IMG/VR virus record: IMGVR_UViG_3300043436_004120
Location: 1 to 64,000 of that record
Source: a virus
Taxonomy: Duplodnaviria > Heunggongvirae > Uroviricota > Caudoviricetes
Reading direction: 5' to 3' (one strand)
Length of the DNA stretch: 64,000 nucleotides
Part shown: piece by piece, positions 20,132 through 64,000 of the stretch
Numbering within the stretch: position 1 is the first letter of the stretch
Layout of the letters: each line of letters begins with the position of its first letter
Notes under the pieces: generated by a model
What the model was told of the DNA's origin: nothing
Database searches by the model: none
Seen by the model: the letters and a program-made list of their open reading frames with translations, nothing else
Program-made: the position numbers and the translations under genes

Positions 20132-20239
20132 CCATATTTTAGCACACTGCTCGCCACTTAATAAATAAATGCAGAGCCGCACCGGTCACGCTTTCTGCGG
20201 GTAACTAGAAACACCTGGCCAGGGTTTAATCTAGCTTGG

Positions 20240-23765: not shown

Positions 23766-24325
23766 TGCGATCTGAAGATTGTTTGCAACAGATTATTCCC
23801 GGCATCGCTGACGCTGGTGTGTTAGTAGAGGTTGGCGTATTGCGTGCGACTAACCTGTTGGCTTTGGCCGCAAGATTCCCAGCAATGCGCTTGATTGGTA
23901 TTGATTCCTATGAAACGTACACTGATCCTTTGCATGGCGGCTATGTTGTCACAGCTGAAATGAGTCGAATGAATGAAGATATTGCTAAAAGGCGTATCAG
24001 CAAAAGCAACTTTGCCGATAGAATTGAACTTAGGGTAGAGCGGTCCGACTTAGCGGCATCAAAAATGTTGGATGCAAGTGTCGATCTTGTGTACTTGGAT
24101 AAGGGCTTCACAGCCGCCGAACAGTTTGATGACGTAACTAAGTGGTTTCCCAAGGTGCGACCCGGGGGCATCTTAGCAGGACATGAAGCATACACTACAG
24201 AGGTGGTACGTGCAACCAAAGAAGCTCTCAAGGCGCTTGGAGTAATACCAGAATTAAAAATCATTAGCGGTCAGGTTTGGTATTTAGTAAAACCTAATAA
24301 CGCTCAACAGTATGTTCCTGATTAG
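23765..24325 (+). CDS. class I SAM-dependent methyltransferase (O-MTase family 3 / TylF-like)
   Basis: LIGIDSYETY, VDLVYLDKG and RPGGILAGHE motifs; start overlaps the tfa stop (TAATG). Confidence 0.55.
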   Translation: MRSEDCLQQIIPGIADAGVLVEVGVLRATNLLALAARFPAMRLIGIDSYETYTDPLHGGYVVTAEMSRMNEDIAKRRISKSNFADRIELRVERSDLAASKMLDASVDLVYLDKGFTAAEQFDDVTKWFPKVRPGGILAGHEAYTTEVVRATKEALKALGVIPELKIISGQVWYLVKPNNAQQYVPD

Positions 24326-48613: not shown

Positions 48614-49528
48614 ATGGATGATACAACAACTGGCGTACCTGTTTCTGCAGATGCAACTGCAGAAGCTATGGAGGCGCTTAAAAAACAAGCTAGTTTTGCT
48701 GATGAATATTACAAGCAACTAGTATCTCAAACTAAAGAAACTTTAAAGGATAAAAGTATGGCAGAAGTAATGACACCCGGTATGATTATGGGTATGGGCG
48801 GTAGCAATGATGGTAGTTTCGGCGGAGGCGGTTTAATCGGCGGCCTTATCTTAGGAAGCTTGTTACGCAATAACGGAAACTTACTTGGCGGAGAAGGCGG
48901 TGGAGCAGCACTAGGTGCCACACTACGTAACCCACCAGAACAAAACCAAGCTAACATGAGCCTAATGCAAAGCATTGGTGCTGTTGACAAAGCAGTAGCT
49001 GTATCAACAGCAGCAATGGAAGCCTCACAAGCTAACCAAACTATTGGACTTAATGCAGCACTAAATGCTGTTACTCAGGGACTGTCTTTACGTATTGACA
49101 ACGTAAAAGATGTAGTTAACCAGAATTCCGTTGCACTAATGCAAGGTCAAGCAGCTATTCAACAAAATATCATGGAAAACCGCTATGAGTTGTCCAAAGA
49201 CATTAGTGCTGATGGTGAGAAGACTCGTGCTTTAATCACACAACAGTACGAACTAAACTTACAGCGTCAACTAGCTGATGCAAACGCAGCTATTATTGAA
49301 CTACGTGGTCGTGAGCACTCTAGTGTTGTAGGTCGTGGCGTAGAAGTTACCACAACCAACAACATCAACCAGATGCAACAACAACAGCAACAACAAGCTC
49401 AATATGGTCAACTAGCCAACTTGATTTGGAGTTTAGGTCAAAGCATTCAAAATGGTAATGCAGCAATTAACGTTGGAAGCGGTACACAAACTGCTAATCC
49501 AGCAAATACAAATACTAACATTCGTTAA
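48614..49528 (+). CDS. Gly/Gln-rich protein (possible virion or scaffold-like protein)
   Basis: 304 aa; GG-rich and poly-Q segments, coiled-coil-like C-terminus. Confidence 0.45.
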   Translation: MDDTTTGVPVSADATAEAMEALKKQASFADEYYKQLVSQTKETLKDKSMAEVMTPGMIMGMGGSNDGSFGGGGLIGGLILGSLLRNNGNLLGGEGGGAALGATLRNPPEQNQANMSLMQSIGAVDKAVAVSTAAMEASQANQTIGLNAALNAVTQGLSLRIDNVKDVVNQNSVALMQGQAAIQQNIMENRYELSKDISADGEKTRALITQQYELNLQRQLADANAAIIELRGREHSSVVGRGVEVTTTNNINQMQQQQQQQAQYGQLANLIWSLGQSIQNGNAAINVGSGTQTANPANTNTNIR

Positions 49529-49535
49529 TATTGCT

Positions 49536-49570
49536 AGCCCCCGCAGCCACAAGCCGTGGGGGCTTTTTTC
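49536..49570 (+). terminator. rho-independent terminator
   Basis: AGCCCCCGC...GTGGGGGCTTTTTT. Confidence 0.6.
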
Positions 49571-49584
49571 GTAGAGGAACTAAC

Positions 49585-50175
49585 ATGCAATATCAAACAA
49601 TGCCTTTTGGTTGGTGCATGCCACCGTACCTTCCACTTCCGCCAACAATTGACGATCGTGACTTGTTTATAAATAGTGTAGTAAACGGTGGCACAGGTAC
49701 ACCAGGGCCAGAAGGACCAACCGGACCCCAAGGTGAAGCAGGCGTAGGAGTTGTGTCAGCAGAAGTAACTGATAACCCAGGAGACTTGCTATTACTGCTA
49801 ACTGACGGGACTATAATTAATGCGGGCCCTGTAATAGGCCCGACAGGACCGCAAGGAGATATGGGGCCGCCTGGACCAAGTGGCGGCTGCAGTTGCGCTA
49901 CCAAAACTATCACACAGGACTATACGGCCGTTGAAACCGACTGCTATATTGGTGCACAGCTAAAAGATAAGGCAACGGTTACGTTGCGAAACACAGTTCC
50001 ACCAGGCACACGTTACACGATAAAACTGGAGTTTGGTGCACCCGTTGGTAACCGAAAATTAATTGTACAACCAGAGTCACCAGCACTAATAAACGGCGTT
50101 ACTGCAATTACACTAACAACCCCATACGAGTCAGTTAGTGTAATTTACAACAACAACCACTGGTGGACAATTTAA
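49585..50175 (+). CDS. collagen-like (G-X-Y repeat) protein
   Basis: GTPGPEGPTGPQGEAGVG and GPTGPQGDMGPPGPSGG triple-helix repeats; start with SD GAGGAA. Confidence 0.6.
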   Translation: MQYQTMPFGWCMPPYLPLPPTIDDRDLFINSVVNGGTGTPGPEGPTGPQGEAGVGVVSAEVTDNPGDLLLLLTDGTIINAGPVIGPTGPQGDMGPPGPSGGCSCATKTITQDYTAVETDCYIGAQLKDKATVTLRNTVPPGTRYTIKLEFGAPVGNRKLIVQPESPALINGVTAITLTTPYESVSVIYNNNHWWTI

Positions 50176-50751: not shown

Positions 50752-51441
50752 TTAAAGTGGGGTATCTTCGTCAGAGTCTTCGTCGTCTACATCTTCGTAG
50801 TCAACCATGTCTTCTGGTGCTAGTTCGTGGAATACTAACACTAAAATATCGCGGTATGGTTGTTCTACTAAGTGCAAGTCTAGTAAGTAAGTATCTAAGT
50901 GATTGTTTCGTAGCAGCTGTGCGTGGTACATAAACTGACCGAAAGCGTCTAACTGTTCCGAAATGTTTTCGTTAGCATAGTCTTCTAGTGTTTGTGCAGC
51001 AGCCATTAACATCATGTGTGGAATCTGCGATTTGGTTACTGATACCAAGTGCATTGCTTTGGCTTCGCGTGCACGCATAATTTGATTACGCTTTGCGGTG
51101 CTCCACGAGTATCCTCCGTCGCCACCCCATAAATCCCAAGCTACTCGACCTTTGCTTGGAAAACCTTCTTCGCCGCTGCGAAAGCCTGTTGCTTTTTTGT
51201 CTACTTCGTGTCGTGCAAAAAACGAATACATTCGTAGCACAACACTCTCCGATAACGGTTCACGATCTTTTAGTTGATTAGCACGAGCCAAACCAACTAG
51301 TGTACCGCCAGGTTCACCGTCTGCTTTCCACTTCAAGGCACGTTTAGCGGCAGTTGCCATGCCGGTTGTTGGTTTGTATGTTTTTGCCATATTAGTTTCT
51401 ATAAGCCATAATAATTTGTTTACACATTTTTGATCGGACAA
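50752..51441 (-). CDS. hypothetical protein (acidic C-terminal tail)
   Basis: 229 aa; poly-acidic C-terminus (DYEDVDDEDSDEDTPL). Confidence 0.45.
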   Translation of the reverse strand: MSDQKCVNKLLWLIETNMAKTYKPTTGMATAAKRALKWKADGEPGGTLVGLARANQLKDREPLSESVVLRMYSFFARHEVDKKATGFRSGEEGFPSKGRVAWDLWGGDGGYSWSTAKRNQIMRAREAKAMHLVSVTKSQIPHMMLMAAAQTLEDYANENISEQLDAFGQFMYHAQLLRNNHLDTYLLDLHLVEQPYRDILVLVFHELAPEDMVDYEDVDDEDSDEDTPL

Positions 51442-52147
51442 TGTCTTCGTCTAAGAACTCTACAACTTCAATGCCGTCAATGTTTTCTAAACGCTCAACT
51501 GCATCTTCAAGTCCACTATCAGGAATGTCTGACTGCTCGGTATCGCCTGAAAAAATCATTTTGCAGTTTTTGCCAATTCTACTCAGCAGCATTTTCATTT
51601 CTTCACGTGTGCAGTTTTGTGCCTCATCTACTAACACAATGCAGTTGTCAAAAGTGGTGCCGCGTAGGAACCCTAGCGGAGTAGGGTCGATATCCTTTGA
51701 CCTTAAACAATACTCATAAAACCCTTTGCCAAGTGCTTTGGTAAAAATTGCGTCAAACGGTAGCAAGTATGGTGCGTACTTTTCTTCTAGTGTACCGGGT
51801 AAAAAGCCTAAGCCCCTGCCAGTTTCAATGTTTGGTCTGGTTAGGATAACTTTGTCTACACGTTTATAATATAATTCTCGTGCAGCATAGTTAGCTGCAA
51901 TAAAAGTTTTACCAGTGCCTGCACTACCTATTCCAAATATAACGTCATTGTTCTCAATTGCATCTAGATATTCTCCTTGTACGAAGTTTAGTGGTTGAAC
52001 TTCTTTAAAGGTATAGTTACGTTGAGGCTGAGGTTCGTCAAAACCTTCATGCTTACTTTGACGCAGTCTAGACTTCTCTGCCTGTGTGGGCTGTGTAGAC
52101 TTTTTTGCTGGAAAGGTGCGATGTGATTTACCACTATTTCTTGCCAT
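51392..52147 (-). CDS. phoH: PhoH-like ATPase
   Basis: Walker A GSAGTGKTF, Walker B VLVDEAQN, PhoH-family C-terminal motifs. Confidence 0.85.
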   Translation of the reverse strand: MARNSGKSHRTFPAKKSTQPTQAEKSRLRQSKHEGFDEPQPQRNYTFKEVQPLNFVQGEYLDAIENNDVIFGIGSAGTGKTFIAANYAARELYYKRVDKVILTRPNIETGRGLGFLPGTLEEKYAPYLLPFDAIFTKALGKGFYEYCLRSKDIDPTPLGFLRGTTFDNCIVLVDEAQNCTREEMKMLLSRIGKNCKMIFSGDTEQSDIPDSGLEDAVERLENIDGIEVVEFLDEDIVRSKMCKQIIMAYRN

Positions 52148-52225
52148 GTACTTCCTTGTTGGTTTATAAAAATCCGGGGTAAGTACTTATTATACCACCC
52201 CTTGTTTATAGTGTCAAATAAAAAT

Positions 52226-53139: not shown

Positions 53140-53727
53140 TTATTTCCCTGCTAGTGGGTTGTCAATGGCTTTTTGGATTTTGGTGTCAACTTCTTTTTTA
53201 AGTGTTTCAACTTCACGAGATATTTCACGACGAGCAGTTGCCATTTCTCGACGAATTAGTTCAACTTCGCTTTTTGCCTTATCCAAGTCTTCACGCACGT
53301 CTTTACGAGCTTGACGTATTTCTTGCTCAGTTTCACGTTGTGCTTGCTTTACTGCACGCTCTACTTGTTCTGTTACTGACTCGTTGCGACGAATATCTTG
53401 TTTTAGGTCATTTTTAATATCACGAGTATAGTCTGTTGTTTTTGACGAGTTTTCTTCAATAACAGCCAGGCGCTTATCAAACTCACTTAAGTCTGGAGCA
53501 GTATACTCAGCTATTTTCTTTTTCATGCTTTGATAGTCTTTGTATACTTCAAACGCACCGTAAAGACCGCCTAGTAGTGAGCTAACTAATGTAAAAGCTA
53601 CCATTAATTTAGCGGGCGTAAATTCGTATCCACCAATTGAAATAACGGTATCTTTGCTTGCATACTGTTTTGCAGTAGCTTCTATCTTATCTACCTGGGT
53701 GTTTATATTTTTTATTTCTGTAGTCAT
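53140..53727 (-). CDS. membrane-anchored coiled-coil protein
   Basis: One N-proximal TM (FTLVSSLLGGLYGAF) followed by a long charged coiled coil. Confidence 0.45.
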   Translation of the reverse strand: MTTEIKNINTQVDKIEATAKQYASKDTVISIGGYEFTPAKLMVAFTLVSSLLGGLYGAFEVYKDYQSMKKKIAEYTAPDLSEFDKRLAVIEENSSKTTDYTRDIKNDLKQDIRRNESVTEQVERAVKQAQRETEQEIRQARKDVREDLDKAKSEVELIRREMATARREISREVETLKKEVDTKIQKAIDNPLAGK

Positions 53728-53735
53728 ATCGTCCT

Positions 53736-54155
53736 TTACTTACTATTAACCATGTTCTCAAACTTTAGTGCTCGCAAGTTCTGCAACTCGCGCTCTAGTT
53801 TTTGAACTTCCATACGCTTCTTTTTTAGCTCTAGCTGATATAACTCATTGCAGTCTAAGCGAGTTCGTGGAGCACCTATTGGTATTGTAATCCTGCCGTA
53901 CACGCCAACATCGCGCTGCTGCATATTTAAGTCCGTGGTTATTGTATTAGGTGCCCTGTTAATAACACCTATTACACCAAACTCTACGTTGGTAGCACTA
54001 CCTATTGCCATAGAACAATCAAGGCCTTCTGCACGAAAGCTATCAGATTGATAGCTACCCGGCGCGCCTGGTAGTGCTAGGTTAATGGAGTTATTTTGAC
54101 CAAAAGCAGGTACTCCAAGACTAAATAGCAGTACGCAACATAAGAATCTAAGCAT
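53736..54155 (-). CDS. secreted protein
   Basis: Signal peptide MLRFLCCVLLFSLGVPAFG. Confidence 0.4.
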   Translation of the reverse strand: MLRFLCCVLLFSLGVPAFGQNNSINLALPGAPGSYQSDSFRAEGLDCSMAIGSATNVEFGVIGVINRAPNTITTDLNMQQRDVGVYGRITIPIGAPRTRLDCNELYQLELKKKRMEVQKLERELQNLRALKFENMVNSK

Positions 54156-54538
54156 TATTTAACCTTAGAACATATTTTTGATGAAATTGCTGTATCTCGG
54201 GCGTCTTGTTTACGAAGACGAGATTCAGTGCAAATGTAAACTATACGAGATAAATCTTGAGCCTTGATATACACATTTACCGGCTTTGTTTCAAGATACC
54301 TAATATTTACTAGTTTATTTTCAGTAGCAAAAGGCAAAGACTTCCAATTAGCGTCATAGACGTCTAGTTCATAGTACTCTACATCTTGTCGTTTATTAAA
54401 AAGCTCCATTCTAGTGCTGAGTACCCCGTCTACAAAGGAGGTGCTGAACTTAGGGTAAGTAGGAGTAAATTGGTGTGCCTGTAGCGGCACACCAATCAAG
54501 CATAAGCTAAGTACTAGACTGTTTACTAGTCTGTGCAT
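54155..54538 (-). CDS. secreted protein
   Basis: Signal peptide; ATGA-coupled with its neighbour. Confidence 0.4.
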   Translation of the reverse strand: MHRLVNSLVLSLCLIGVPLQAHQFTPTYPKFSTSFVDGVLSTRMELFNKRQDVEYYELDVYDANWKSLPFATENKLVNIRYLETKPVNVYIKAQDLSRIVYICTESRLRKQDARDTAISSKICSKVK

Positions 54539-54541
54539 AGT

Positions 54542-55042
54542 TTATAAGGCAATACACTGCGCTAATACAACTGACTTGTATTCGCCCATTGGAAAAGATT
54601 TATTATAACCATACTGAGCTTTTGAAGTGGCGGCAAACCAAACGGTGCCTTGAACTGTTAAGTCAATTTCGGTTATGTTGCCATTGTACACACGTTTAGC
54701 ATTTGTGTACGCAGACATACTTGCATTTGTAATTTTGCTTACGTCAACACTACTAGTCCAAGTTACTGAATCCGCCAATGTTGGTGAAGTAGTAAAACTA
54801 TCTGGTGTAGTAATAATTGCTTTGTAGTATCCAGCTTGAATTACATCATAGCGAACTACAGCAGGTCGGCCGCCGTCAGCGGCAAATGTGCTAAGTATTT
54901 CTGGCGTTGGGTTGCCGTAAATACCTGGGGTATCTACGTTAATAATACATTTTGAGGTAACCATTCCACGAATAGGTATCTCGGTTGCACCAGCAGTAAA
55001 ACCAAGTGCTAGTGCGGCTGCCACGATAAGTTTTTTAATCAT
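54542..55042 (-). CDS. secreted protein (pilin/SCPU-like beta-rich protein?)
   Basis: Signal peptide, conserved Cys near both termini, Thr/Ser-rich beta-strand composition. Confidence 0.35.
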   Translation of the reverse strand: MIKKLIVAAALALGFTAGATEIPIRGMVTSKCIINVDTPGIYGNPTPEILSTFAADGGRPAVVRYDVIQAGYYKAIITTPDSFTTSPTLADSVTWTSSVDVSKITNASMSAYTNAKRVYNGNITEIDLTVQGTVWFAATSKAQYGYNKSFPMGEYKSVVLAQCIAL

Positions 55043-55051
55043 GTTAATTCC

Positions 55052-55903
55052 TTACTTTTTAATCATATACTGCAAATCAACTAGTTGATTGTGCAGACGT
55101 TCTTGGCTCATGTTAAGTCTACGACTATTACTGCTGTCTGGTAATTTTTTATCTGCGTACTGTAGTACGTCTTTGTAAACACCGCCAGGTATTTGTTGGC
55201 TATAAGCCACAAGCCCTGGCAGATTATTTAAAGCTTCAAAGGACTGAGCCAATCCTAAAGCTTGTGCTGTTAATAATGCATTTTTGGCTGTGTTGCTTGA
55301 TCTTGATCTAGCCTTGGCGTTACTGCTGGCTAGTACAAATTTTCTGGAATTTTCTTCCTCGATTGCATCAGGCATGTATTTTTTAACTTGGTAACTGCCA
55401 ACAACAAATTCGTCTTCGCTGTAGGCAAATATAGCACTGGATTTGTAGTTTGGGCAGCCGGGGTCAACCACAACTGCACTCTTACAAGTATCGTATGTGT
55501 AGTTGTAGAATAGGCTGTAGTCTACAACTTGTCCCACACCTTGTGTTGTAATTTCACCCGGACCCCACTGGGTACCCGGTATGTTATTAACTGGTACTGT
55601 TTTTGTTATAGTGTTACCAGGTACCCCTGTCCAGTCATCCTGTGTTCTGAAAACATAACCATTGCCAGTACTAGACAAATTTTGTACATTTACCACAAAT
55701 GGGTCTTGTGTTTGTTTTTGTGCAGTATACTGATAACTAACTGCTGTAACTGATAAACCTGTATATTTTGGTAATATGTTAGTCATTGTCCAGGTCAAAC
55801 CACCAGCGGTCGCATTGGCGGTTTGACCACGTACTACTTCAGAGTAAGAGTAAGAGCAGCAAGCTAATAAGGCCAGCGCCCCCAAAAAGTGTTTTAATTT
55901 CAT
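55052..55903 (-). CDS. secreted protein (283 aa)
   Basis: Signal peptide; Tyr/Thr-rich. Confidence 0.4.
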   Translation of the reverse strand: MKLKHFLGALALLACCSYSYSEVVRGQTANATAGGLTWTMTNILPKYTGLSVTAVSYQYTAQKQTQDPFVVNVQNLSSTGNGYVFRTQDDWTGVPGNTITKTVPVNNIPGTQWGPGEITTQGVGQVVDYSLFYNYTYDTCKSAVVVDPGCPNYKSSAIFAYSEDEFVVGSYQVKKYMPDAIEEENSRKFVLASSNAKARSRSSNTAKNALLTAQALGLAQSFEALNNLPGLVAYSQQIPGGVYKDVLQYADKKLPDSSNSRRLNMSQERLHNQLVDLQYMIKK

Positions 55904-56411
55904 TGCTTAGACCCTTGGGCTCTGGTTTATAGTCAGGCTGATCTGCTTTGTTTGCTTTCCAGGCTGCTTTGGCTTCTGCACCAATTGTTCCGTCGTACGG
56001 ACAAGGTGTGCCGGCTTGCATCATAGCATCAAACACACGGCGATCTTGACACAGGGTACTAACAGCTGCCACTTTCATGCCCATGTCATACAGTGTTTTT
56101 GATAGTTTTAATCTTTCACAGTTCATGTCACGAACTGTAGAGCCAGCACTAATACCCAAGATTTGAGTTTGCACAGCACCTGCAACACCCACTGTACACA
56201 AATCTGTGTTAGAAGTATTTATTGTAGGCGATATTGCACTTGCTGGCGGGGACTTAACTGTTGTTGTAGCATCAGATTTAGTGGTTACTACACTGTTTGT
56301 AACTATCTGATTATTTGCATCAGTTGTTGGCTGTTGCACTAGTTGTTGAGCATTACTTAGCCCAATTTGTAGTACTAGTGCAACGGGTAACAAATATTTT
56401 AAAAGGTGCAA
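55839..56411 (-). CDS. secreted Thr-rich protein
   Basis: Signal peptide; low-complexity T/S-rich N-terminal half. Confidence 0.4.
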   Translation of the reverse strand: MHLLKYLLPVALVLQIGLSNAQQLVQQPTTDANNQIVTNSVVTTKSDATTTVKSPPASAISPTINTSNTDLCTVGVAGAVQTQILGISAGSTVRDMNCERLKLSKTLYDMGMKVAAVSTLCQDRRVFDAMMQAGTPCPYDGTIGAEAKAAWKANKADQPDYKPEPKGLSNEIKTLFGGAGLISLLLLLLL

Positions 56412-56412
56412 C

Positions 56413-57039
56413 TTAGGCTCCTAACACGTGTAGTGCGTGATTATAATGTTTGATGCGGTCGTCTAAGCCAATGGTGCCCCCATTAATACGTTTGGTTAGG
56501 GTTACAATATCGCCTTTATCGGCCCAGGTATTTAACTTATTTGTTTCCCAAAACCAGCAGGCACTCTGTGCAGCACCTTCAAACGTTTCTAGATATTCAG
56601 CGGCTTCTTCAACTGTTATATCTAAACTAGCTGCAAACCAAGTATAATTATCTTTGCCAGTTAACTGAATTAGTCCTTTGCCAGCAAAACGCCACCCATC
56701 GCCACTTTCAGGAGGTCCATTACCCATGCGATTTGCATATACTAAGTTAGCTATTGCTTGTTGCTTGTTTGGCTTTGAAGCGTACTGCTGTGCAAACTCG
56801 TCAGTGGGAAAATACTTTGGAAAAATTTTACGCAGTGTTTGCCACTTGTAATTTAAATTTTCGCGTAACGCAGTAAAGTTTCCTGACTCGTGTGCACACT
56901 GTGCAATAAAAGCAGCAATACGTTGTGGCGTATTGATCTCATAGTCGGGTAATAGTTGGCTTAATGCTGTATGCCACTGCTGCGTATGCGGATTTTTGGG
57001 AATTAACTGTTGTAGTTGCTGGAGGGTTAGTTGAGTCAT
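56413..57039 (-). CDS. endolysin, glycoside hydrolase family 19 (chitinase-like lysozyme)
   Basis: AAFIAQCAHESGNFTALRENLNYK matches the GH19 catalytic motif (FLAQxSHETxG); adjacent to the spanin pair. Confidence 0.7.
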   Translation of the reverse strand: MTQLTLQQLQQLIPKNPHTQQWHTALSQLLPDYEINTPQRIAAFIAQCAHESGNFTALRENLNYKWQTLRKIFPKYFPTDEFAQQYASKPNKQQAIANLVYANRMGNGPPESGDGWRFAGKGLIQLTGKDNYTWFAASLDITVEEAAEYLETFEGAAQSACWFWETNKLNTWADKGDIVTLTKRINGGTIGLDDRIKHYNHALHVLGA

Positions 57040-57302
57040 CGTAGCCTTTCAAATAAGACTTTTTGTTCTTGGTACCATTTTTGCCAAGCTTCTAACTTAA
57101 TCGCGCACTGATAGTACAGGGTATAGTTATTGCTTACTATAGTAGCAACTTGAGAAAGTTGTGGATTATCGGGCAGGCGCTCTAGGGAAGGGCAGGGCTC
57201 CTGCACTAATTGACCTGGTGATTCAGGCCACTTTGTGGTTACAGGTACTACCGTGCTGCAACCGGCTAAAACAACGGAAAGTGCCAATACTAGTGCTTTC
57301 AT
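57036..57302 (-). CDS. o-spanin (Rz1-like outer-membrane lipoprotein)
   Basis: Lipobox VLAGC, Pro-rich mature region, 88 aa, immediately downstream of and overlapping the i-spanin gene. Confidence 0.55.
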   Translation of the reverse strand: MKALVLALSVVLAGCSTVVPVTTKWPESPGQLVQEPCPSLERLPDNPQLSQVATIVSNNYTLYYQCAIKLEAWQKWYQEQKVLFERLR

Positions 57303-57718
57303 TTTGGTATCTCCGCTGCGGCGTTGTGTGCTCGTACAAATTCAGGAGGAATATAGCAACCAGCATCGTGTTTGGTTACTTCTCGCGTTATATACTCTAC
57401 TGTGTTTGCACCACGTTGTTTTACTATTTGAGTTTTGTAAATAACTCGTTCTTTTATTTCAGTATTAACTACCTGAGATTGTTGAGTTAATTCAGCAACT
57501 TTTGCTTCTAATTCCCTTGCTGCCTGCTTCCAGGTATTGTCGCTGTATAGCATACCCAAAATAAAAATACTTATTGCTATGGTAGTACCACCAACTATTT
57601 TTAATAGTAAAGCATAAGGTTTTAGCAGAGGCAACCAAGAAGCTAACGCAGCAAATATTCCGCTAAAAAGCATTATCCACCACAACCATTGTGGAAAAAA
57701 TTTAAAAAACCAAAACAT
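57299..57718 (-). CDS. i-spanin (Rz-like) or holin-like membrane protein
   Basis: N-terminal TM segment(s), then periplasmic coiled coil (AARELEAKVAELTQQSQVVNTEIKER). Confidence 0.5.
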   Translation of the reverse strand: MFWFFKFFPQWLWWIMLFSGIFAALASWLPLLKPYALLLKIVGGTTIAISIFILGMLYSDNTWKQAARELEAKVAELTQQSQVVNTEIKERVIYKTQIVKQRGANTVEYITREVTKHDAGCYIPPEFVRAHNAAAEIPK

Positions 57719-57721
57719 TTT

Positions 57722-58441
57722 TTATTGTACCTTTAGGTTAGGATAATATCTAGCTAACAGCTCTTTGTGTATTAATATATCAATATTTCTATTTACAGAA
57801 TTTTTTACTCTGAAATGATCTACTGCTGCGCTTACATTATCTAGCTCGTCCTTGAAACTGTCGATGGTTACATTTTCTAAGTATTTTACCGAGTTTATAC
57901 CATCTAGTATATCTGCGTTGCAAGTCTCGGTAAAAAATTCGCTAAGAATTCTGTCTTCTGGTAGGTACTTACCGTTATGTGTAAGATATACCTTTTCTGG
58001 CTGATCTAGTAATTGGTCTATAAGGTTTTTTGATATTACCATATCAGATCCAACTACATATTTAGGTGAAAAATATCCTATTCTTCCAGTTATAGTGTTT
58101 AACCTAGGTAACGTACTAAGTCTACTTAATAACTTATCAAACACCCAAAAAGTACTAATATTAGTCCTTACTAAGTAATCGTATGTGTGTTTAGAATCTA
58201 TATGTTGTAGTGCCTGTACTACTTTTTTTGCAGGATGTGGTTGTATAACAGACTCTATTAAATTTTCGTACACTAAATCATAGTCTTGTGGAACGAAGGT
58301 TACTTTGCCGGCATAAACAAAGTATACTTTTATATCTGTGCTGCTTTGTATATACTTAACATATAAATTTTTAAGCTCATTGTACAGTAGGCTTTCGGAC
58401 GCTAACACTAACAATACAGCTTTATAGTAGGTTTTTTCCAT
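57722..58441 (-). CDS. paralog 3 of a tandem triplicated glycosyltransferase-like family
   Basis: MxKxYYKAVLLVLAS N-terminus, YPGM, DYLVRTNISTFW and HFRVKN motifs shared with the two upstream paralogs. Confidence 0.45.
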   Translation of the reverse strand: MEKTYYKAVLLVLASESLLYNELKNLYVKYIQSSTDIKVYFVYAGKVTFVPQDYDLVYENLIESVIQPHPAKKVVQALQHIDSKHTYDYLVRTNISTFWVFDKLLSRLSTLPRLNTITGRIGYFSPKYVVGSDMVISKNLIDQLLDQPEKVYLTHNGKYLPEDRILSEFFTETCNADILDGINSVKYLENVTIDSFKDELDNVSAAVDHFRVKNSVNRNIDILIHKELLARYYPNLKVQ

Positions 58442-59147
58442 AGTAGTGATTTAATAAAAATTTTGCTATGTATATGTCTTGATGCCTTAAATCTTTTACA
58501 CTTTTTATTCTGTAGTGGTCAATACCACTATCACGACTTACTAAGTTAACCAAGTCACTGTTACTTACTGTTTTATTATTTTCCAATATACCAATTGATC
58601 TGTATTTATTGTGTTCTACTACTACGCCAGAGTTTCTCAAAGAGTTAGATAGGGCGTAGTCTTCAGGATAATCTATATCAAGTATATCAGTGTCTGTAAG
58701 TAGCTTATAAGCTGCATCACTAGACATAACAAGACTAGTTCCTGAAATATAGTCAGGTAGCTTAATATTCTTATGTTTACAGGCTCTAAAAGGTCCTGTG
58801 GCGTAGTTATATTTTGGCAAGGATTCTAACCTTTGGAGTAGTCTGTCAAATATCCAAAAAGTGCTAATATTTGTTCTAATAATATAATCACAAGTAAGAT
58901 TATTTTGTACCCAATTAATAGCAGATAGTGTTTTACACACCATACCTGGATAATATGTTTCAGGTATGTCAAATACCAGTTCCGAACTAACGTCTGAATT
59001 TTTACACGTCTTATTTCCGAATACAAAAAATACCTTAATGTCAGAATTAACATTAAGGTATTGATCGTATATGTTTTTAAATTGACGATATATTTCAGTA
59101 TTATCAGAAGCCAGTACCAGCAATACTGCTTTATAGTGCTTTTTCAT
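58422..59147 (-). CDS. paralog 2 of the triplicated glycosyltransferase-like family
   Basis: MKKHYKAVLLVLAS, YYPGM, CDYIIRTNISTFW, HYRIKS. Confidence 0.45.
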   Translation of the reverse strand: MKKHYKAVLLVLASDNTEIYRQFKNIYDQYLNVNSDIKVFFVFGNKTCKNSDVSSELVFDIPETYYPGMVCKTLSAINWVQNNLTCDYIIRTNISTFWIFDRLLQRLESLPKYNYATGPFRACKHKNIKLPDYISGTSLVMSSDAAYKLLTDTDILDIDYPEDYALSNSLRNSGVVVEHNKYRSIGILENNKTVSNSDLVNLVSRDSGIDHYRIKSVKDLRHQDIYIAKFLLNHYYGKNLL

Positions 59148-59937
59148 AAATGTCTAAGAGTAGCCTAGATAGTACTTGTTTATCAACAGATCTATTGGTG
59201 TAATTTTTTATTCTAAAATGATTAAGATTATTAGCAAGTTGGTGGTCTCGTATAGCCAAATACTTTTGTTCGCTAAACTCAGTTAACATACCATTTTTTG
59301 CTTCTTGCGGACTAGGGATCATGCTCATAAAAGAAGCAGTGTTAGAAACAAAATGTGAATCCATTGAAACTTCAGCATATTTTTTAATTGCAGCATTTAA
59401 CGCAACGTCTTCTAAGTCAAGATAAACTTTGCTTTGTAGAATTTCGTTTGAAAAAGGTAAGATCTTTTTAACTATATCCTTACTTATTAACAAGTCAAAA
59501 CCGGCTACATAATCCAAAGCTTTATCTTTTATTACTATACGAGTACCTGTAACACAGGTAGGCGGCAGAATATTTAAATGTTCTACTAACCTATTAAAGT
59601 CCCAGAAGGTACTAAGATTAGTTCTTATTAGGTAGTCATAACTATAGTTAGTATCAATATGCTCAATAGCTCTAATAGTCTTAGCAAGCATGCCGGGATA
59701 GTATTTTTCTGGTATATCTTCGTATACTAAATCGTAATTGTGTTTATCAAAAGTAGTACCAGCACCATAAACAAACAATACTTTTATATCTGAGTGTTCA
59801 AACATATATGCTTCATACACAGACTTCATAAATGGATAAAGCGGCCAACTATCTTTTTGTGCTTTTTGAAAAACTGACTCAATTGGAACATCTTCAGATG
59901 CTAATACTAACAGTATTGCTTTATAGTGCTTTTTCAT
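59131..59937 (-). CDS. paralog 1 of the triplicated glycosyltransferase-like family
   Basis: MKKHYKAILLVLAS, YYPGM, YDYLIRTNLSTFW, HFRIKN. Confidence 0.45.
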   Translation of the reverse strand: MKKHYKAILLVLASEDVPIESVFQKAQKDSWPLYPFMKSVYEAYMFEHSDIKVLFVYGAGTTFDKHNYDLVYEDIPEKYYPGMLAKTIRAIEHIDTNYSYDYLIRTNLSTFWDFNRLVEHLNILPPTCVTGTRIVIKDKALDYVAGFDLLISKDIVKKILPFSNEILQSKVYLDLEDVALNAAIKKYAEVSMDSHFVSNTASFMSMIPSPQEAKNGMLTEFSEQKYLAIRDHQLANNLNHFRIKNYTNRSVDKQVLSRLLLDIYEKAL

Positions 59938-59944
59938 GTACTAA

Positions 59945-61138
59945 CTACTCTAATAAAATACTTGGATAGTATCTAAGAATAGTAGCAGTTTCGCAACTAG
60001 CAAGCGCTTTTTCTTTTATTTCTGTATAAAAGTTCCAGGCTAGTGGTATTACTACTAGTGGTCGGGTATCTTTAGCTAACTGTGTTGGGGGCACTATGGG
60101 TATATTTGTACCCGGTGTAAGCAATCCTTGTTTTAGCGGATTATCTTCTACTATGTAGTCCAAAGATATTTTACTGTAGTTTAAAAAGGTATTTGATTTG
60201 GCGGCGGCGCCATAACCTATTACGGCGTATCCGGATGCTTTCAAGGATTCGACCATAGATACCACAGCCGAAGTTACCGCAGACACTTTAGCAGAAAACT
60301 TTTCAACAACTTGTTTGGTAACTTCCGGAAATTTACTCAAGCACATTTCAGTACCATGTTTGCGCAAAACAAAAATATAACTAGTGCCGTGTATACTAGG
60401 CATTTGTATATCAACTAGTTTTAAACCTGCACTACGAGCAAGAGCCTGCATAGACTTAGGACTGAAAAAAGATAAGTGTTCGTGGTATACAGTATCAAAC
60501 TCGCCATTAAATATCATATTGGCTTGTGAGGTTTGAATAAATATAGCGCCTGTGTTTGACAAACAGCTGGCACTATATTGTAAAAAATCTTTGGTATAGG
60601 CAAGGTGTGCAAATACATTTTGTGCAACGATAACATCAAACTCAACACCAAAACTTTTGATGTTGTCTGCGGTAAGATAATCACATATAATATTGCCTTG
60701 CCTAGAACTCAAATCTAATAAATTTTCCGCAGGGTCTATGCCAAAAGTCTTATAGCCTTTTTGTTTATAAAACTCTAGCTGAGAACCGTCGTTACATGCA
60801 ATATCTAGTACGTTTGTAATTTTTGGTACGTAGGTTTCTGTTATACCAACAAAGTCTGAGAAATGTTGTTTTCCAGTACTGGTAGTACCTGAAACGTATA
60901 AGTAATTTTTAAATAACTCATCTGGATCTACGCTAACAGTTAGCTGAACATGAGTACATTCTTCACAGTATTGTAACTCTAGTGGATATGTGTTTTCTTG
61001 TTGTGGTTGTTTTACATAACTGTTGGCAAGGGGCTGATTGCCTAAGTCTAAAAATTTTGTAAGATGTTTGCCGCCACAAGCTAGGCAACTTGTTATGTGT
61101 GTGTATTTTAAAGCCATTGTTTGTTTTCTAAAGTCCAC
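59945..61138 (-). CDS. NDP-hexose C-methyltransferase-like (N-terminal zinc-binding domain + SAM MTase + C-terminal domain)
   Basis: CLACGG...CEEC zinc cluster (Methyltransf_13-like), class I MTase core, TylC3-like C-terminal domain. Confidence 0.6.
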   Translation of the reverse strand: MDFRKQTMALKYTHITSCLACGGKHLTKFLDLGNQPLANSYVKQPQQENTYPLELQYCEECTHVQLTVSVDPDELFKNYLYVSGTTSTGKQHFSDFVGITETYVPKITNVLDIACNDGSQLEFYKQKGYKTFGIDPAENLLDLSSRQGNIICDYLTADNIKSFGVEFDVIVAQNVFAHLAYTKDFLQYSASCLSNTGAIFIQTSQANMIFNGEFDTVYHEHLSFFSPKSMQALARSAGLKLVDIQMPSIHGTSYIFVLRKHGTEMCLSKFPEVTKQVVEKFSAKVSAVTSAVVSMVESLKASGYAVIGYGAAAKSNTFLNYSKISLDYIVEDNPLKQGLLTPGTNIPIVPPTQLAKDTRPLVVIPLAWNFYTEIKEKALASCETATILRYYPSILLE

Positions 61139-62211
61139 TCTACAACTTGTTTAATTCTAGTATTGAAGTCATATTTTGGCTCCCAGCCGAGACTTTTCAT
61201 ATACTCTCCGCTAAGGCTGTAACGGAAATCGTGTCCAGGGCGTTGCTGGTCATAACTTACTAGTTTATAGTTAAGTTCTCGGCCTACAATTTCTGCAACT
61301 TTTTCTGCTACATAAAGATTACTGTGTTCTGCTTGTCCTACAATATTAAATTTGGGGCAAGTAAAGTCTTTGATATACTTGGGAAATGGAAAGCCTTTGT
61401 GTGGCAAATCCATAATAAACATAGTAGCATCAGCAACATCTGCTGCATGAATCCAGTGACGCAATCCGGATTTAGTACCAGTTTCTGCATCAGCATGAAT
61501 CAGTACTTCTTGGTTGGCTAGTAGTTTATTGATTACTAAACCGATAAATTTTTCGTTTAACTGGCGTTCGCCAAAAACGTTCATTGTATGTGTACAGTAT
61601 ATAGGCATACCGTATGTGTTTTCATATGCTACACATAATTCTTCTGCACCTGCTTTTGTTGCAGAATAGGGGCTACGACTATTGTATCTGGAGTATTCGT
61701 AAAAATCTATGCCTTCTGGTGCAGAGCCAAATACTTCATCAGTGCCAAAGTTAATGAACTTTTGCAAATTGGGTAAGTATTTGCGTGCATACTCCAACAA
61801 GTTACAAGTGCCCACAACATTGTCTTGTACAAACAACATAGGATTTTCAATGGATCGGTTCACGTGACTTCCAGCAGCCATGTGAATTATGTAATCAACA
61901 TTGCCAAGTTGTTGTGCTAGTCCGGGATTTATTTCTGCGCGTAAGTCGTGATATACAACCCGTAAACGCTTTAAGGTGTCTTTTGAAAATTCGCCAGAAA
62001 GTTCTGCTAATCTATTTAAGTTGCCAGAAAAGTCTAGTCTGTCTAGGGATATTACCCTGTATTCTGGATGCTTTAATAAGCGACGTATCATGTGGTGCCC
62101 AATAAATCCAGCACCACCAGTAACCAAAACTGTTTTAATATGAGTATTTTCCATTAAATAGAACGCTGATTTTTGTTGTTGAATATTTTTTAAGTAACTG
62201 AACCCACTCAT
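61108..62211 (-). CDS. rfbB: NDP-sugar 4,6-dehydratase (RfbB/SDR extended family)
   Basis: VLVTGGAGFIGHH Rossmann motif, YSATKAGAEE catalytic YxxxK, dehydratase-like C-terminal half. Confidence 0.7.
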   Translation of the reverse strand: MSGFSYLKNIQQQKSAFYLMENTHIKTVLVTGGAGFIGHHMIRRLLKHPEYRVISLDRLDFSGNLNRLAELSGEFSKDTLKRLRVVYHDLRAEINPGLAQQLGNVDYIIHMAAGSHVNRSIENPMLFVQDNVVGTCNLLEYARKYLPNLQKFINFGTDEVFGSAPEGIDFYEYSRYNSRSPYSATKAGAEELCVAYENTYGMPIYCTHTMNVFGERQLNEKFIGLVINKLLANQEVLIHADAETGTKSGLRHWIHAADVADATMFIMDLPHKGFPFPKYIKDFTCPKFNIVGQAEHSNLYVAEKVAEIVGRELNYKLVSYDQQRPGHDFRYSLSGEYMKSLGWEPKYDFNTRIKQVVEWTLENKQWL

Positions 62212-62716
62212 CCGGCGATTTTATGTTTATGTGCATGTTTTCGCCAGATAAAAAAGAGTTATTTGAAGGCGAAGTGCTAACCGAAAACATTAGCGTACCT
62301 CCGGTATCTACATAACTGCTTGCCTCGTTAATAAAGCTTTGTAACTCAGAATCTGGTATATGCTCTAGTACGTCCGAACAAACTACTAAGTCAAATTTTG
62401 TAGTTGGCTTTTTGCTGTATATATCCACAGCAGGATCATACCTATAAAAGCCTTGAACTTTCTCACCTAAAACCGTCATCAAAGATTTGGTTTTGTTTAC
62501 AAGTGTATGCTTATGCCAGTGAATAGCAGTACCGCAGCCAAAGTCCAGTATGGTAACTGACTTTTTATCTGCAATAATGGCAAGTATAGTGTCTATTAAG
62601 CTACGAATACCACCACCATCAAAAGCAGCATAGTCTTTTAATGTAATTTCTTGGCCTTTTCGTATAAACTTGCCACCTTCAAAAATGGACTTATATTCTT
62701 GTATGTAAGACTTCAT
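62135..62716 (-). CDS. class I SAM-dependent methyltransferase
   Basis: ILDFGCGTAIH motif I and VVCSDVLEHIPD post-II region. Confidence 0.55.
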   Translation of the reverse strand: MKSYIQEYKSIFEGGKFIRKGQEITLKDYAAFDGGGIRSLIDTILAIIADKKSVTILDFGCGTAIHWHKHTLVNKTKSLMTVLGEKVQGFYRYDPAVDIYSKKPTTKFDLVVCSDVLEHIPDSELQSFINEASSYVDTGGTLMFSVSTSPSNNSFLSGENMHINIKSPDEWVQLLKKYSTTKISVLFNGKYSY

Positions 62717-63234
62717 TTATTTTCTAGTTTGCGTTTTAAGGCTTCTATTTCCTGTTGCTGTGCTTTTGCAACTTCAATTAACAGCGGGATAATTCGTGGG
62801 TAGTTTACGGTTAGGTAATTTTGCCCTGATTTTGAGCCGCCGGCATCTGCACGATCAAATGGAGCCAATTCAACAGCATCAGGTATTACACGTAATATTT
62901 CTTGAGCTTTTACACCGTGCTCGTGCACGTTAATATAGTTAAATCCAAGTTCTTGGCAAAGTTCTTGATCCCAATCAAATTCATATCCATTTATTAAAGA
63001 TAGTTTACCTATTGGATCTTGTATCTTAATAAAGTTCTTTTTAAGCCTTTGATCTGAAGAATATGCAGTAATATTAGAAGAAGCCGCTATAGTACCTGCA
63101 GACCCCTCGTTAACGCCTACACCCAGCGCGTTAAATCTTACGCCAGACCCAGTACCTAGCCCGCTGAAGTTGTTGTCTAATTGAGTGTGCGATAGAGTAC
63201 TTCCGGCACTTCTTAGTGTAAAGCTTTGTGGCAT
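62713..63234 (-). CDS. short fibre-like protein with a peptidase S74 intramolecular-chaperone (CIMCD) domain
   Basis: SSDQRLKKNFIKIQDPIGKLSLINGYEFDWDQE matches the S74 chaperone-of-endosialidase motif (SDxRLKxNI...L..L....Y.W); Gly-rich N-terminal stalk. Confidence 0.6.
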   Translation of the reverse strand: MPQSFTLRSAGSTLSHTQLDNNFSGLGTGSGVRFNALGVGVNEGSAGTIAASSNITAYSSDQRLKKNFIKIQDPIGKLSLINGYEFDWDQELCQELGFNYINVHEHGVKAQEILRVIPDAVELAPFDRADAGGSKSGQNYLTVNYPRIIPLLIEVAKAQQQEIEALKRKLENK

Positions 63235-63246
63235 ATATACCCTTTA

Positions 63247-63930
63247 TTATTTATAAACGTACTTATCCTTGTATTTAGCACGTTCAGTTGTAGTATAGTC
63301 CAAATAAGCATCTACTTTTGCCCGCCAGTCTACATCGACTTCGGGATTAATAATACCAGATTTAGGACTACTCAATGCTCGATTTACCCACGATTTAGGG
63401 TCTTGTTGAGTAAATAGAAACTTATTTACATGGTAAAAGCTACCTTGCTCTACCTTATTATATGAATCAATAGGCTCTATTGTTTTGTCAAGACATACGG
63501 CGTACACAGCGGACTCACTCATATGAGAAGTATAAACTACTTCGGTTTCGTCCGCCAGGAGCAGCTTATACATATCAGCGTCTCGCTCTGTTACATTGGT
63601 GCTGCCAAATAAGTCTTTTAGCTCACCAATTAACTGATGTGTAGTTAGTGGATGTGGTTTAAACCAAACCTCATCTTCGTGCTTATCTTTAATCCACTGT
63701 AGTTTATTTAAGCAAATTCTTTCTTTTAATTTATTAGAACCTACTAAAATAACTAGTGCCTCTCTTGGAGTGTATTCTTGCACTTTGTCAATGTGTTCAT
63801 ACTTATTGGAGTTACGATTAGTGACTCTATCTTTAAAGTATTCTACATAATCGACCTGTGTGGCTGTTGTATCATTATAAGCATCCAACATTTGTTGGAT
63901 TCGTAATTCTTGTTGCAATGGGTGCATCAT
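63247..63930 (-). CDS. hypothetical protein
   Basis: 227 aa ORF upstream of the S74-domain gene. Confidence 0.45.
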   Translation of the reverse strand: MMHPLQQELRIQQMLDAYNDTTATQVDYVEYFKDRVTNRNSNKYEHIDKVQEYTPREALVILVGSNKLKERICLNKLQWIKDKHEDEVWFKPHPLTTHQLIGELKDLFGSTNVTERDADMYKLLLADETEVVYTSHMSESAVYAVCLDKTIEPIDSYNKVEQGSFYHVNKFLFTQQDPKSWVNRALSSPKSGIINPEVDVDWRAKVDAYLDYTTTERAKYKDKYVYK

Positions 63931-64000
63931 AAAACAATGTGCCCATTCAGTATAGTTTATAGTCTTGTAGTGTGGAAGTTCATTTGCTACTACATCATAG

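Follow-up and report, generated by a model that had tools for sequence, protein, structure and literature searches.

To our knowledge, virus-encoded glycosylation of virions has been established only for giant viruses, with their fibril and capsid glycans, and for mycobacteriophages. Such viruses carry their own glycosyltransferases and sugar-modifying enzymes beside structural genes. The same arrangement is found in a compact minus-strand late-gene cluster of an uncultured T5-like phage (positions 57722-63234 in the ORF listing of the window, i.e. the whole 64,000-nucleotide stretch analysed from record IMGVR_UViG_3300043436_004120), which also has a GT-A family in common with the giant viruses. 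The phage system differs from these precedents in its Gram-negative host, its T5-like carrier, its other glycosyltransferase families and its branched C-methyl sugar pathway, and also in its putative acceptor, which is a dedicated repeat protein of more than 1,000 residues and not a short capsid-protein tail. Mycobacteriophage virion glycosylation is credited to Freeman et al. 2023 in PMC12582341. The phage island also differs from the serine-rich repeat adhesin islands of Gram-positive bacteria (GspB, Fap1), which employ GtfA/B and accessory glycosyltransferases: it lacks an accessory Sec system, Trp recurs at regular intervals in its Thr-rich repeats, other enzyme families are involved and the context is viral. 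With a probability of about 0.5, we regard the block as the enzymatic part of a late-expressed phage island that glycosylates a Thr/Ser/Trp fibre protein of the virion.

All minus-strand genes described in the first-pass annotation (counted as eight) were recovered as ORFs. The fibre and lysis genes that it had placed next to them are there as well, an S74 mini-fibre gene inside the block and a lysis cassette downstream (56413..57718, likewise on the minus strand), which marks the downstream boundary and lies outside the sugar module. At the other end, the functional block reaches one gene further than previously described, from 63247 to beyond the window end: the C-terminal 250 codons of a minus-strand HP-motif gene occupy 63247..64000, and its start lies approx. 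131 nt past the window (294 aa in full). Overlaps of 4-31 nt between neighbouring genes fit the expectation for a single operon; the block contains no enriched promoter or terminator signal. The GC content is 35% in the block and 31-32% in the GT-A paralogs versus 42.8% for the window. Probably, the sugar block is late-transcribed, in one operon with the tail-fibre and lysis genes of a lytic-type phage.

The best-characterized relatives of the two deoxysugar enzymes come from antibiotic pathways, in which C-methyltransferases like MtmC, TcaB9 and KijD1 act together with RmlB. The phage dehydratase (61108..62154; 348 aa according to gene callers, with the longest ORF extending to 62211) is an extended SDR that matches Pfam GDP_Man_Dehyd/Epimerase and dTDP-glucose 4,6-dehydratases in the PDB (E from 7e-51 for the best to 7e-35). 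The GxxGxxG, T-D-E and YxxxK signatures of RmlB are represented by GGAGFIG at residue 13, TDEV at 138 and YSATK at 163. Its score on TIGR01181, 241.9 bits, is under the NCBIfam equivalog cut-off of 365.1, indicating a divergent RmlB subfamily. By sequence it is a clear RmlB homologue, and the nucleotide of its substrate would be dTDP or UDP. The C-methyltransferase (59945..61138; 397 or 390 aa) scores above the Pfam cut-offs for Methyltransf_13, _23 and _14 (zinc domain PF08421, 72 bits; PF13489, 54.1 bits; PF08484, 98.8 bits), and the four cysteines of its N-terminal zinc domain form the pairs CLAC and CEEC. In a PDB sequence search it matched MtmC (4rv9) across residues 15-377 with E = 5e-54, and full-length homology extends to TcaB9 (3ndi) and KijD1 (5t6b), with E values of 5e-54 to 1e-41. 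As these three closest solved relatives are all C-3 enzymes, the phage protein most likely adds a methyl branch at C-3. Among 50,697 phage records in INPHARED, just 8 are matched by it.

The phage block has the three-domain architecture and zinc site of the antibiotic enzymes in common with them, as well as the pairing with a 4,6-dehydratase. In contrast, the genes are phage-borne, and a 2,3-dehydratase, an aminotransferase, an epimerase and a separate 4-ketoreductase are missing, which suggests that the substrate is probably a plain 4-keto-6-deoxyhexose. MtmC is a bifunctional enzyme that also carries out a reduction (PMC10269268), and by analogy a similar reduction by the phage C-methyltransferase is possible. 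The motifs and full-length matches bear out the earlier identification of both enzymes, and the homologies support the chemistry of the 6-deoxy, C-/O-methylated sugar then proposed, O-methylation being graded as possible. A nucleotidyltransferase is absent from the window, as had been noted: none was found when every non-overlapping ORF of at least 90 aa was scanned against Pfam (a few replication genes against PHROGs). The suggestion that an rfbA-like gene might lie past position 64000 did not hold, since neither this nor any other nucleotidyltransferase was among the called genes in the 10 kb past the edge on a 97.7%-identical contig (L016). The nucleotide-sugar precursor is therefore most likely host-derived. 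The absence of a 4-ketoreductase from the window had gone unremarked. Several related phage loci also lack both 4-ketoreductase and nucleotidyltransferase, so that the sugar end-product in our main reading is tentative.

Between the dehydratase gene and the HP-motif gene lie two smaller genes. The 193-aa class I SAM methyltransferase (62135..62716; Methyltransf_23, 47.8 bits, E = 1.7e-12; phrog_24759, E = 1.9e-29) is a candidate glycan O-methyltransferase. The 173-aa mini-fibre (62713..63234) starts with approx. 59 residues that bear a tail-fibre-type N-terminus and continues with an S74 intramolecular chaperone domain (Peptidase_S74, PF13884, residues 60-121; 35.1 bits versus a Pfam cut-off of 22). 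In PHROGs, it aligns with the C-terminal ends of numerous tail-fibre families, and SS/DQRLKKNF is its likely self-cleavage site. The lysis cassette encodes a 139-aa membrane/coiled-coil spanin-like protein with weak matches to Rz-like spanin PHROGs, an 88-aa lipoprotein with the lipobox LAGC and a 208-aa GH19-type endolysin (phrog_181, E = 7e-78).

The three tandem genes next to the lysis cassette encode GT-A paralog 1 (59131..59937; 268 aa), paralog 2 (58422..59147; 241 aa) and paralog 3 (57722..58441; 239 aa). They were introduced as a triplicated, glycosyltransferase-like family. Three tandem paralogs are indeed present, with 34-39% identity and a BLASTP E value of 1e-37 for the most distant pair. 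They are old lineages, however, and not the product of a recent triplication: for each paralog, other phages encode proteins closer to it (identities of 46%, 66% and 52-55%) than its siblings are. Among the sequence blocks said to be shared by all three, YYPGM is replaced by VIQPHPAKK in paralog 3, although the family-invariant residues are all kept. The glycosyltransferase-like character is substantiated by fold and sequence. The AF2 model of paralog 2 (pLDDT 90.7) has a GT-A fold and in Foldseek came nearest to B3GalT5 (8zwp; E = 2.9e-11, TM 0.69) and B3GNT2 (7jhl; E = 4e-11), with weaker matches to a Stealth-type phosphotransferase and nucleotidyltransferases (E approx. 1e-4). A profile of 54 family sequences, moreover, matches human B3GalT5 at E = 1.6e-10. 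Pfam gave a divided answer: paralog 2 has a weak Galactosyl_T match under the gathering score (19.5 bits versus 23, E = 9e-4), and paralogs 1 and 3 match neither PF01762 nor PF02434. Weak Galactosyl_T matches occur in 24 of the 54 family members (best E = 7.8e-8).

The active site departs from the GT31 enzymes (B3GalT5, B3GNT2, B3GalT6, B3GLCT and the GT31 domains of chondroitin synthases), with which the family has the GT-A fold, a hydrophobic beta-4 strand and an (E/D)-D-V-type catalytic motif in common. At the end of beta-4, the DxD metal-binding motif, a hallmark of most GT-A enzymes, is absent from the paralogs, which have N-x-S instead, within a near-invariant R-T-N-(L/I)-S-(T/S)-F-W. 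In the HMM alignment, R-T-N-l-S is opposite K-T-D-S-D of B3GalT5, R-A-D-D-D of CHSY3 and K-A-D-D-D of B3GalT6. N93 is found in 161/166 and S95 in 155/166 members, and Asp occupies position 93 once. GT31-type catalysis should thus not be assumed. The (E/D)-D-V-type motif, aligned with L-E-D-V of B3GalT5, is kept (E/D at 162 as well as D163 in 161/163 members), and a conserved H-x-R-x-K could take the place of the metal in diphosphate binding. The phage paralogs further differ from GT31 enzymes in being soluble proteins of approx. 240 aa devoid of a membrane anchor, and in belonging to a family, found only in viral contigs, that is tied to C-methyl deoxysugar genes and not to UDP-Gal/UDP-GlcNAc chemistry. 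Taken from sequence and model, they are predicted glycosyltransferases, old members of an unannotated GT-A family remotely related to GT31.

This family comprises approx. 3,300 cluster representatives, none of them annotated, and was found in phage and giant-virus contigs only; two signature-motif scans revealed no member in 185,579 prokaryotic species genomes. Of 41 IMG/VR loci that carry a GT-A family gene, 19 also encode the same C-methyltransferase within 10 kb, and 8 of the 9 phage-like loci are among these 19. In giant-virus contigs, the GT-A gene adjoins or is fused to an ORF for a C-methyltransferase plus SDR, and one protein (P0118) combines the GT-A family domain with an RmlD-like domain and a C-methyltransferase. 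Further fusions involve GT2, GT41, Mannosyl_trans3 or HtrL domains. Linkage and fusion suggest that the family probably transfers the branched C-methyl sugar.

A fourth transferase is probably encoded by the HP-motif gene at the window edge. Searches of the 294-aa protein gave no Pfam, NCBIfam or PDB sequence match, and its sole hits were to functionally uncharacterized PHROG families. Its model displays a reduced GT-B-like fold similar to CMP-Kdo and sialyl transferases, with KpsC, WbbB and KrkA as nearest structural relatives. K158, H160 and P161 of a K-P-H-P motif, following model strand 155-158, are invariant in 33 homologues and may correspond to the HP of KpsC and WbbB. Judged by the model, the protein probably transfers a CMP-activated ulosonic acid, for example Kdo or a sialic-type sugar. 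Unlike the beta-Kdo transferases (KpsC, GT107; WbbB, GT99; KrkA) and the bacterial sialyl/polysialyl transferases, to which sequence similarity is undetectable, it is shorter, phage-encoded and in every case located beside a Thr/Ser/aromatic-rich fibre-module protein and not in a capsule or O-antigen locus.

On L016, the gene directly upstream of the 294-aa gene is a single open frame of 1,194 codons (approx. 1,190 residues) coding for 42% T, 21% S and 10% W, with DNA repeat periods that are all multiples of 3. Such Thr/Ser/Trp repeat genes, 0.5-3.6 kb in length, were missed by gene callers in three contigs checked (L007, L016, L017). The pair of a T/S/aromatic-rich protein and then a 29x-aa transferase recurs in eight other contigs (L012, L015, L017, L019, L020, L023, L024, L026) and in the cultured Caulobacter phage Lullwater as gp41/gp42, each time after a tail-fibre gene. 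Its company varies: a GT4-methyltransferase fusion and a 2OG oxygenase in L017, three GT2/GT9-like genes and Methyltransf_23 in L019, a GT92-like gene in L020. The T/S/aromatic-rich protein is the most conserved partner of the transferase, even where S74 and GT-A genes are lacking (L012, L017, Lullwater). This synteny makes the Thr/Ser/Trp protein the most likely glycan acceptor, although a beta-solenoid free of glycans or a carbohydrate-binding fibre would be an alternative.

A pathway can be proposed from these parts. Starting from NDP-glucose of the host, in either its dTDP or its UDP form, the RmlB-like enzyme would produce NDP-4-keto-6-deoxyglucose, to which the TcaB9/MtmC-type zinc SAM enzyme would add the methyl branch, most likely at C-3. 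The 4-keto group might be reduced by the methyltransferase itself, if it is bifunctional like MtmC, by a dehydratase with a second activity or by a reductase of the host. The three DxD-less GT31-offshoot paralogs might then transfer the branched 6-deoxyhexose and/or lengthen the glycan, in a probably metal-free reaction with Asp163 of the (E/D)-D motif as base. The 193-aa methyltransferase may O-methylate the glycan, and the HP-motif enzyme could add a CMP-activated acid sugar, e.g. Kdo, which every Gram-negative host supplies. Thr/Ser residues of the repeat protein encoded immediately upstream, past the window edge, would serve as acceptor, and synteny suggests that virions would thereby carry a mucin-like glycoprotein fibre. 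Only tentatively do we extend this scheme to other viruses, with the DxD-less offshoot, seen only in viruses, as a dedicated 3-C-methyl-6-deoxyhexose transferase common to tailed phages and giant viruses; in phages, it would act together with a CMP-ulosonic-acid-type transferase to make the Thr/Ser/Trp protein a mucin-like virion fibre.

Virion proteins, the host surface receptor and DNA had all been listed as possible targets; the late fibre-to-lysis operon and the cross-lineage synteny with the Thr/Ser/Trp protein and the fourth transferase favour virion proteins. Remodelling of the host surface is unlikely but has arguments of its own. Lipid-linked glycans of bacteria are the substrates of KpsC, WbbB and KrkA, and the deoxysugar enzymes belong to the type known from bacterial O-antigen and antibiotic pathways. 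LPS-type genes also occur in marine phages, and the receptor of T5 is blocked by the phage itself. Alteration of lipid-linked O-antigen, capsule or LPS core glycans during infection might block superinfection or prevent adsorption of progeny to debris. Yet all enzymes look soluble, the block contains neither a flippase nor a polymerase nor a membrane partner, the genes sit in a late operon of a lytic-type phage, the two motif scans of prokaryotic genomes yielded no member of the GT-A family, and the association with tail-fibre and Thr/Ser/Trp genes is kept across unrelated phages. Rather improbable, too, is another acceptor on the virion (capsid, tail tube, other fibres or the S74 mini-fibre), with the Thr/Ser/Trp protein as a mere neighbouring fibre component. 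Mycobacteriophages reportedly glycosylate capsid and tail-tube subunits, and L019, L021 and L026 likewise encode a small S74 protein after the 29x-aa transferase, but the most conserved partner of that transferase is the Thr/Ser/aromatic-rich protein, not the S74 protein.

Doubt may also be cast on the paralogs themselves, as the loss of DxD in nearly all members and the weaker fold matches would fit a transferase for sugar-phosphate or other groups, a sugar-nucleotide-binding protein or a non-catalytic one. We think this improbable given the retained catalytic-base position, the H-x-R-x-K that could bind diphosphate, and the fusion of members to domains that are established glycosyltransferases or serve sugar synthesis. 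Besides, DxD-less, metal-independent GT-A enzymes exist: BoGT6a of Bacteroides (4cj8), which has NxN, is among the Foldseek matches. Attachment of the sugar to a modified base is very improbable. Phages are known to glycosylate DNA bases (e.g. PMC13326640), and the window covers only approx. 64 kb of an approx. 100-kb contig. However, none of the window ORFs was seen to encode a base-modifying enzyme, the single thymidylate-synthase-like gene found there is of the ThyX type and not a ThyA-type hydroxymethylase, and the cluster belongs to the structural/late module, away from replication genes. As far as we know, the DNA glucosyltransferases of T4 are not GT31-like either.

If virion-protein glycosylation is the correct reading, a mobile module of this kind among phages that infect Gram-negative bacteria would considerably widen the known range of virion glycosylation. 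An orphan GT-A family would gain a testable role as transferase for a branched C-methyl deoxysugar and offers a natural example of a GT31-type enzyme lacking DxD. The uncalled Thr/Ser/Trp genes indicate that phage annotation may overlook such genes. Fibres coated with glycans would bear on how phages recognise their hosts and how stable they are, and on the immune recognition of therapeutic phages. On the more tentative extended scheme, they would also constitute a hitherto unrecognised class of phage surface structure in several lineages, cultured Caulobacter phages included.

The minus-strand block at 57722–63234 encodes an S74 mini-fibre, a small class I methyltransferase, an RmlB-like dehydratase, a zinc C-methyltransferase and three paralogs, so that the gene set described by the first-pass annotation is real. 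A lysis cassette comes after the paralogs on the same strand. Gene ends in the block overlap by 4–31 nt. As promoter-like and terminator-like sites show no excess over shuffled sequence, the block looks co-transcribed with the upstream fibre and downstream lysis genes. Within paralog 2, at 59062–59029 (minus strand), one terminator-like site was called, a 15-bp AT-rich hairpin with a T-run after it; it is probably incidental. The GC content of the block is 35% (31–32% in the paralogs) compared with 42.8% in the window, which suggests that it was acquired as a cassette.

None of the three paralogs (59131–59937, 268 aa; 58422–59147, 241 aa; 57722–58441, 239 aa; all minus strand) passed Pfam, PHROG or NCBIfam thresholds, and a tblastn search with paralog 1 gave no match in 50,697 phage records. 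A word-indexed search returned 15 relatives of the family. A full profile search (E ≤ 1e-3) returned 3,311 cluster representatives, so the family is sizeable, although it carries no annotation. For paralog 2, the AlphaFold model (pLDDT 90.7) shows a GT-A fold. Among solved structures it is closest to the GT31 enzymes B3GalT5 and B3GNT2 (E about 3e-11, TM 0.69), and among viral proteins to uncharacterised ones from giant viruses (TM 0.84). B3GalT5 was also detected by sequence with a 54-sequence family profile (E = 1.6e-10). In the profile alignment, the R-T-N-x-S of the family lies opposite K-T-D-S-D of B3GalT5 and opposite DDD of CHSY3 and B3GalT6, and its (E/D)-D is matched to the E-D-V catalytic motif. 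Near-invariant residues among 166 members include N93 (161), S95 (155) and D163 (161 of 163), and likewise R213 and K215. Fold and profile matches, motif alignment and residue conservation together identify the family as a relative of GT31 in which the metal-binding DxD is lost and a putative catalytic base retained. The conserved H-x-R-x-K may have taken over the role of the metal. The three copies are ancient, and a recent triplication in situ was rejected, because the nearest relatives of each are found in other phages and not among its siblings. Tandem arrays of two or three family copies recur in other phage lineages. Copy number varies between close relatives: the 77%-identical contig L015 holds two GT-A genes, the 268-aa paralog 1 being absent (L015:5164–5326 compared with window 59131–59937), and L023, of the same relative lineage, holds three.

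The paralog family occurs at 41 IMG/VR loci, nine of them phage-like and the others in giant-virus bins or very large contigs; one database member adjoins an mRNA capping enzyme gene. A bacterial origin was set aside. When the genomes of 185,579 bacterial and archaeal species were scanned twice for signature motifs, 8 and 9 stretches matched; no true member was among them, and such pattern scans overlook divergent relatives. A C-methyltransferase of the same type lies within 10 kb of a family member at 19 of the 41 loci and at eight of the nine phage-like ones. This type matches only 8 of the 50,697 deposited phage records, and the association is thus far above background. On giant-virus contigs, the C-methyltransferase is either the neighbouring ORF or part of a fusion, with an SDR domain or with the family domain itself; in the family member P0118, the family domain is followed by an RmlD-like reductase and the C-methyltransferase. 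From this linkage and these fusions, we infer that the family transfers a C-methyl-branched deoxysugar.

Homology also supports the sugar chemistry that had been proposed for the block, namely synthesis of a methylated 6-deoxy sugar. The 348-aa dehydratase matches solved dTDP-glucose 4,6-dehydratases at 7e-51 and contains GGAGFIG, TDEV and YSATK. Its score is below the RmlB equivalog cut-off, and its substrate may be dTDP- or UDP-glucose. The 397-aa protein consists of a zinc domain, a SAM domain and Methyltransf_14, and can be aligned along its whole length with MtmC (5e-54), TcaB9 and KijD1, all of which are C-3 methyltransferases of 4-keto sugars. MtmC, its closest solved relative, is a bifunctional 4-ketoreductase and 3-C-methyltransferase (PMC10269268). 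No nucleotidyltransferase, epimerase, 4-ketoreductase or further glycosyltransferase was found among the non-overlapping ORFs of at least 90 aa in the window. This agrees with the earlier remark on the missing nucleotidyltransferase, and no hidden RmlA, RmlC or RmlD gene was found in the same ORF set. Sequence past position 64000 was taken from the related contigs L016 (97.7% identical) and L007. The same activities were absent from the called genes of the next 10 kb in L016, so that the rfbA-like gene that might have lain just beyond the window edge was not found there. Several related phage loci are equally pared down to a dehydratase, a C-methyltransferase and two or three paralogs. The host or a bifunctional enzyme must therefore supply the precursor and carry out the final reduction.

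The module is larger than originally described. The ORF at 63247–64000 (minus strand), cut by the window end, represents the C-terminal 250 residues of a 294-aa protein with at least 193 homologues, none of them annotated. Its K-P-H-P motif is invariant in 33 homologues and may correspond to the HP motif of CMP-sugar enzymes; the family profile gave only a chance match against PDB sequences. This protein is probably a fourth transferase, of the CMP-sugar type. Directly upstream of its gene, the same phage has a Thr/Ser/Trp-rich ORF (L016:6285–9866, about 130 nt past window position 64131) with one open frame of 1,194 codons, composed of 42% Thr, 21% Ser and 10% Trp. Further such ORFs are located at L007:917–3101, L017:7305–9917, L019:7434–8954 and L012:4194–5609. 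In L007, L016 and L017 they were missed by gene callers, and contigs often break inside them. Several features show that this is a real coding gene: no other frame is open throughout the divergent copies, a central aromatic element and both termini (R-V-T-N-F-Y at the C-terminal end) are conserved, and all DNA repeat periods are multiples of three. A PHROG scan of four of these proteins gave no match, possibly as a result of composition filters. Judging from its gene neighbourhood, the repeat protein is the likely acceptor of the sugar.

The order tail-fibre gene, Thr/Ser/aromatic-rich protein gene and 29x-aa transferase gene is found across lineages in L012, L015, L017, L019, L020, L023, L024 and L026, the L019 phage having a T4-type capsid gene, and in diverged form in the cultured Caulobacter phage Lullwater (gp40, gp41 and gp42). 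The genes after the pair of repeat protein and transferase differ. They are deoxysugar enzymes and three GT-A genes in the window, a 2OG oxygenase and a GT4-methyltransferase fusion in L017, a GT92-like gene in L020, and in L019 an S74 mini-protein, a double-GT2 protein, Methyltransf_23, another GT2 and a GT9-like protein. In L021, the C-methyltransferase gene is followed by three GT-A genes, the 29x-aa transferase gene and a small S74 protein gene. A constant core of repeat protein and transferase beside exchangeable glycosyltransferase sets is what a repeat protein serving as acceptor would predict, and the gene neighbourhood fits such a role. Downstream of the pair in L017 (16029–18280 and 19978–20670), the oxygenase and the fusion are accompanied by a collagen-like protein, a set that may point to hydroxylation combined with glycosylation, as in collagen. 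The fibre gene of L019 (4309–7434) has (S-G-X)n triplet repeats with an aromatic X. About 8 kb upstream of the pair, at L019:1–624, ATP-sulfurylase and APS-kinase genes make glycan or protein sulfation conceivable. Literature searches on virion glycosyltransferases of phages, threonine-rich fibre proteins and Caulobacter phage Lullwater retrieved no description of the module.

Glycosylation of the repeat protein has to be weighed against other targets. Remodelling of host glycans would suit the KpsC/WbbB-like fold of the 294-aa protein, but is weakened by the late-operon position of the block, its lack of membrane partners, the synteny with fibre genes and the failure of signature-motif scans to find the GT-A family in prokaryotic genomes. 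There is little support for DNA as the target, since the cluster is not among the replication genes and the thymidylate synthase is of the ThyX type. A ThyA-type hydroxymethylase was ruled out as a sign of DNA modification: the gene at 8149–9075 (minus strand) is ThyX-like and labelled 'thymidylate synthase' in PHROGs. With the DxD missing, it is conceivable that the paralogs are no longer glycosyltransferases. Yet the catalytic-base position is retained, family members are fused to other sugar enzymes, and DxD-less GT-A enzymes exist.

The source is an uncultured tailed phage with a T5-like layout. All 26 tRNA genes and a permuted tmRNA lie between 357 and 26028. The tmRNA (20212–20604, plus strand; tag ANDQVYALAA) scores 119.9 bits with Rfam tmRNA_permuted and 95.4 bits with beta_tmRNA; the latter match may point to a betaproteobacterial host. 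Also in this early region, a 320-aa glycine-rich protein, a Phage_tail_APC (tail assembly chaperone) ORF and a Methyltransf_24 protein (22357–24325, plus strand) are oddly placed for tail-type genes, and a protein with a dATP/dGTP diphosphohydrolase N-terminal domain (PF18909, E = 2e-34) is encoded at 11090–11599 (plus strand). The plus-strand replication block after the tRNA region comprises a DnaB-like helicase, primase, DNA polymerase I type, SbcCD, ribonucleotide reductase and split NAD-dependent ligase. At its end (48614–50175, plus strand) follow a 304-aa Gly/Gln/Asn-rich protein and a 214-aa protein with short collagen-like G-X-Y tracts (GTPGPEGPTGPQGEAG). A perfect-consensus sigma-70 promoter (TTGACA, 17 nt, TATAAT, extended TG) at 52217–52189 (minus strand) precedes a PhoH-like gene (51392–52147), and a second site of this type at 53165–53137 has 11 of 12 matches. 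The minus-strand unit occupies the window from about 53 kb onwards. Just downstream of the lysis cassette, six consecutive ORFs (53140–56411, minus strand), kept in L015, have no Pfam matches and match only PHROG families of unknown function. By eye, at least five have a signal-peptide-like N-terminus, and one has a Ser/Thr-rich stretch and a hydrophobic C-terminal tail. The DNA polymerase is 50–51% identical to those of T5-like Vibrio phages. Megablast against the 50,697 deposited phage records found no near-identical relative of 57000–64000. Several metagenome contigs encode proteins identical to those of the window, and L001 and L016 are 99.2% and 97.7% identical to it over 10.5–10.8 kb.

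In summary, virus-encoded glycosylation of virions is already known, and the functional steps beyond homology are predictions here. With this module, we add a DxD-less GT31 offshoot, found only in viral sequences here and linked to the synthesis of C-methyl sugars, a probable fourth transferase of the CMP-sugar type, and a giant Thr/Ser/Trp protein, overlooked by gene callers, as the likely acceptor.
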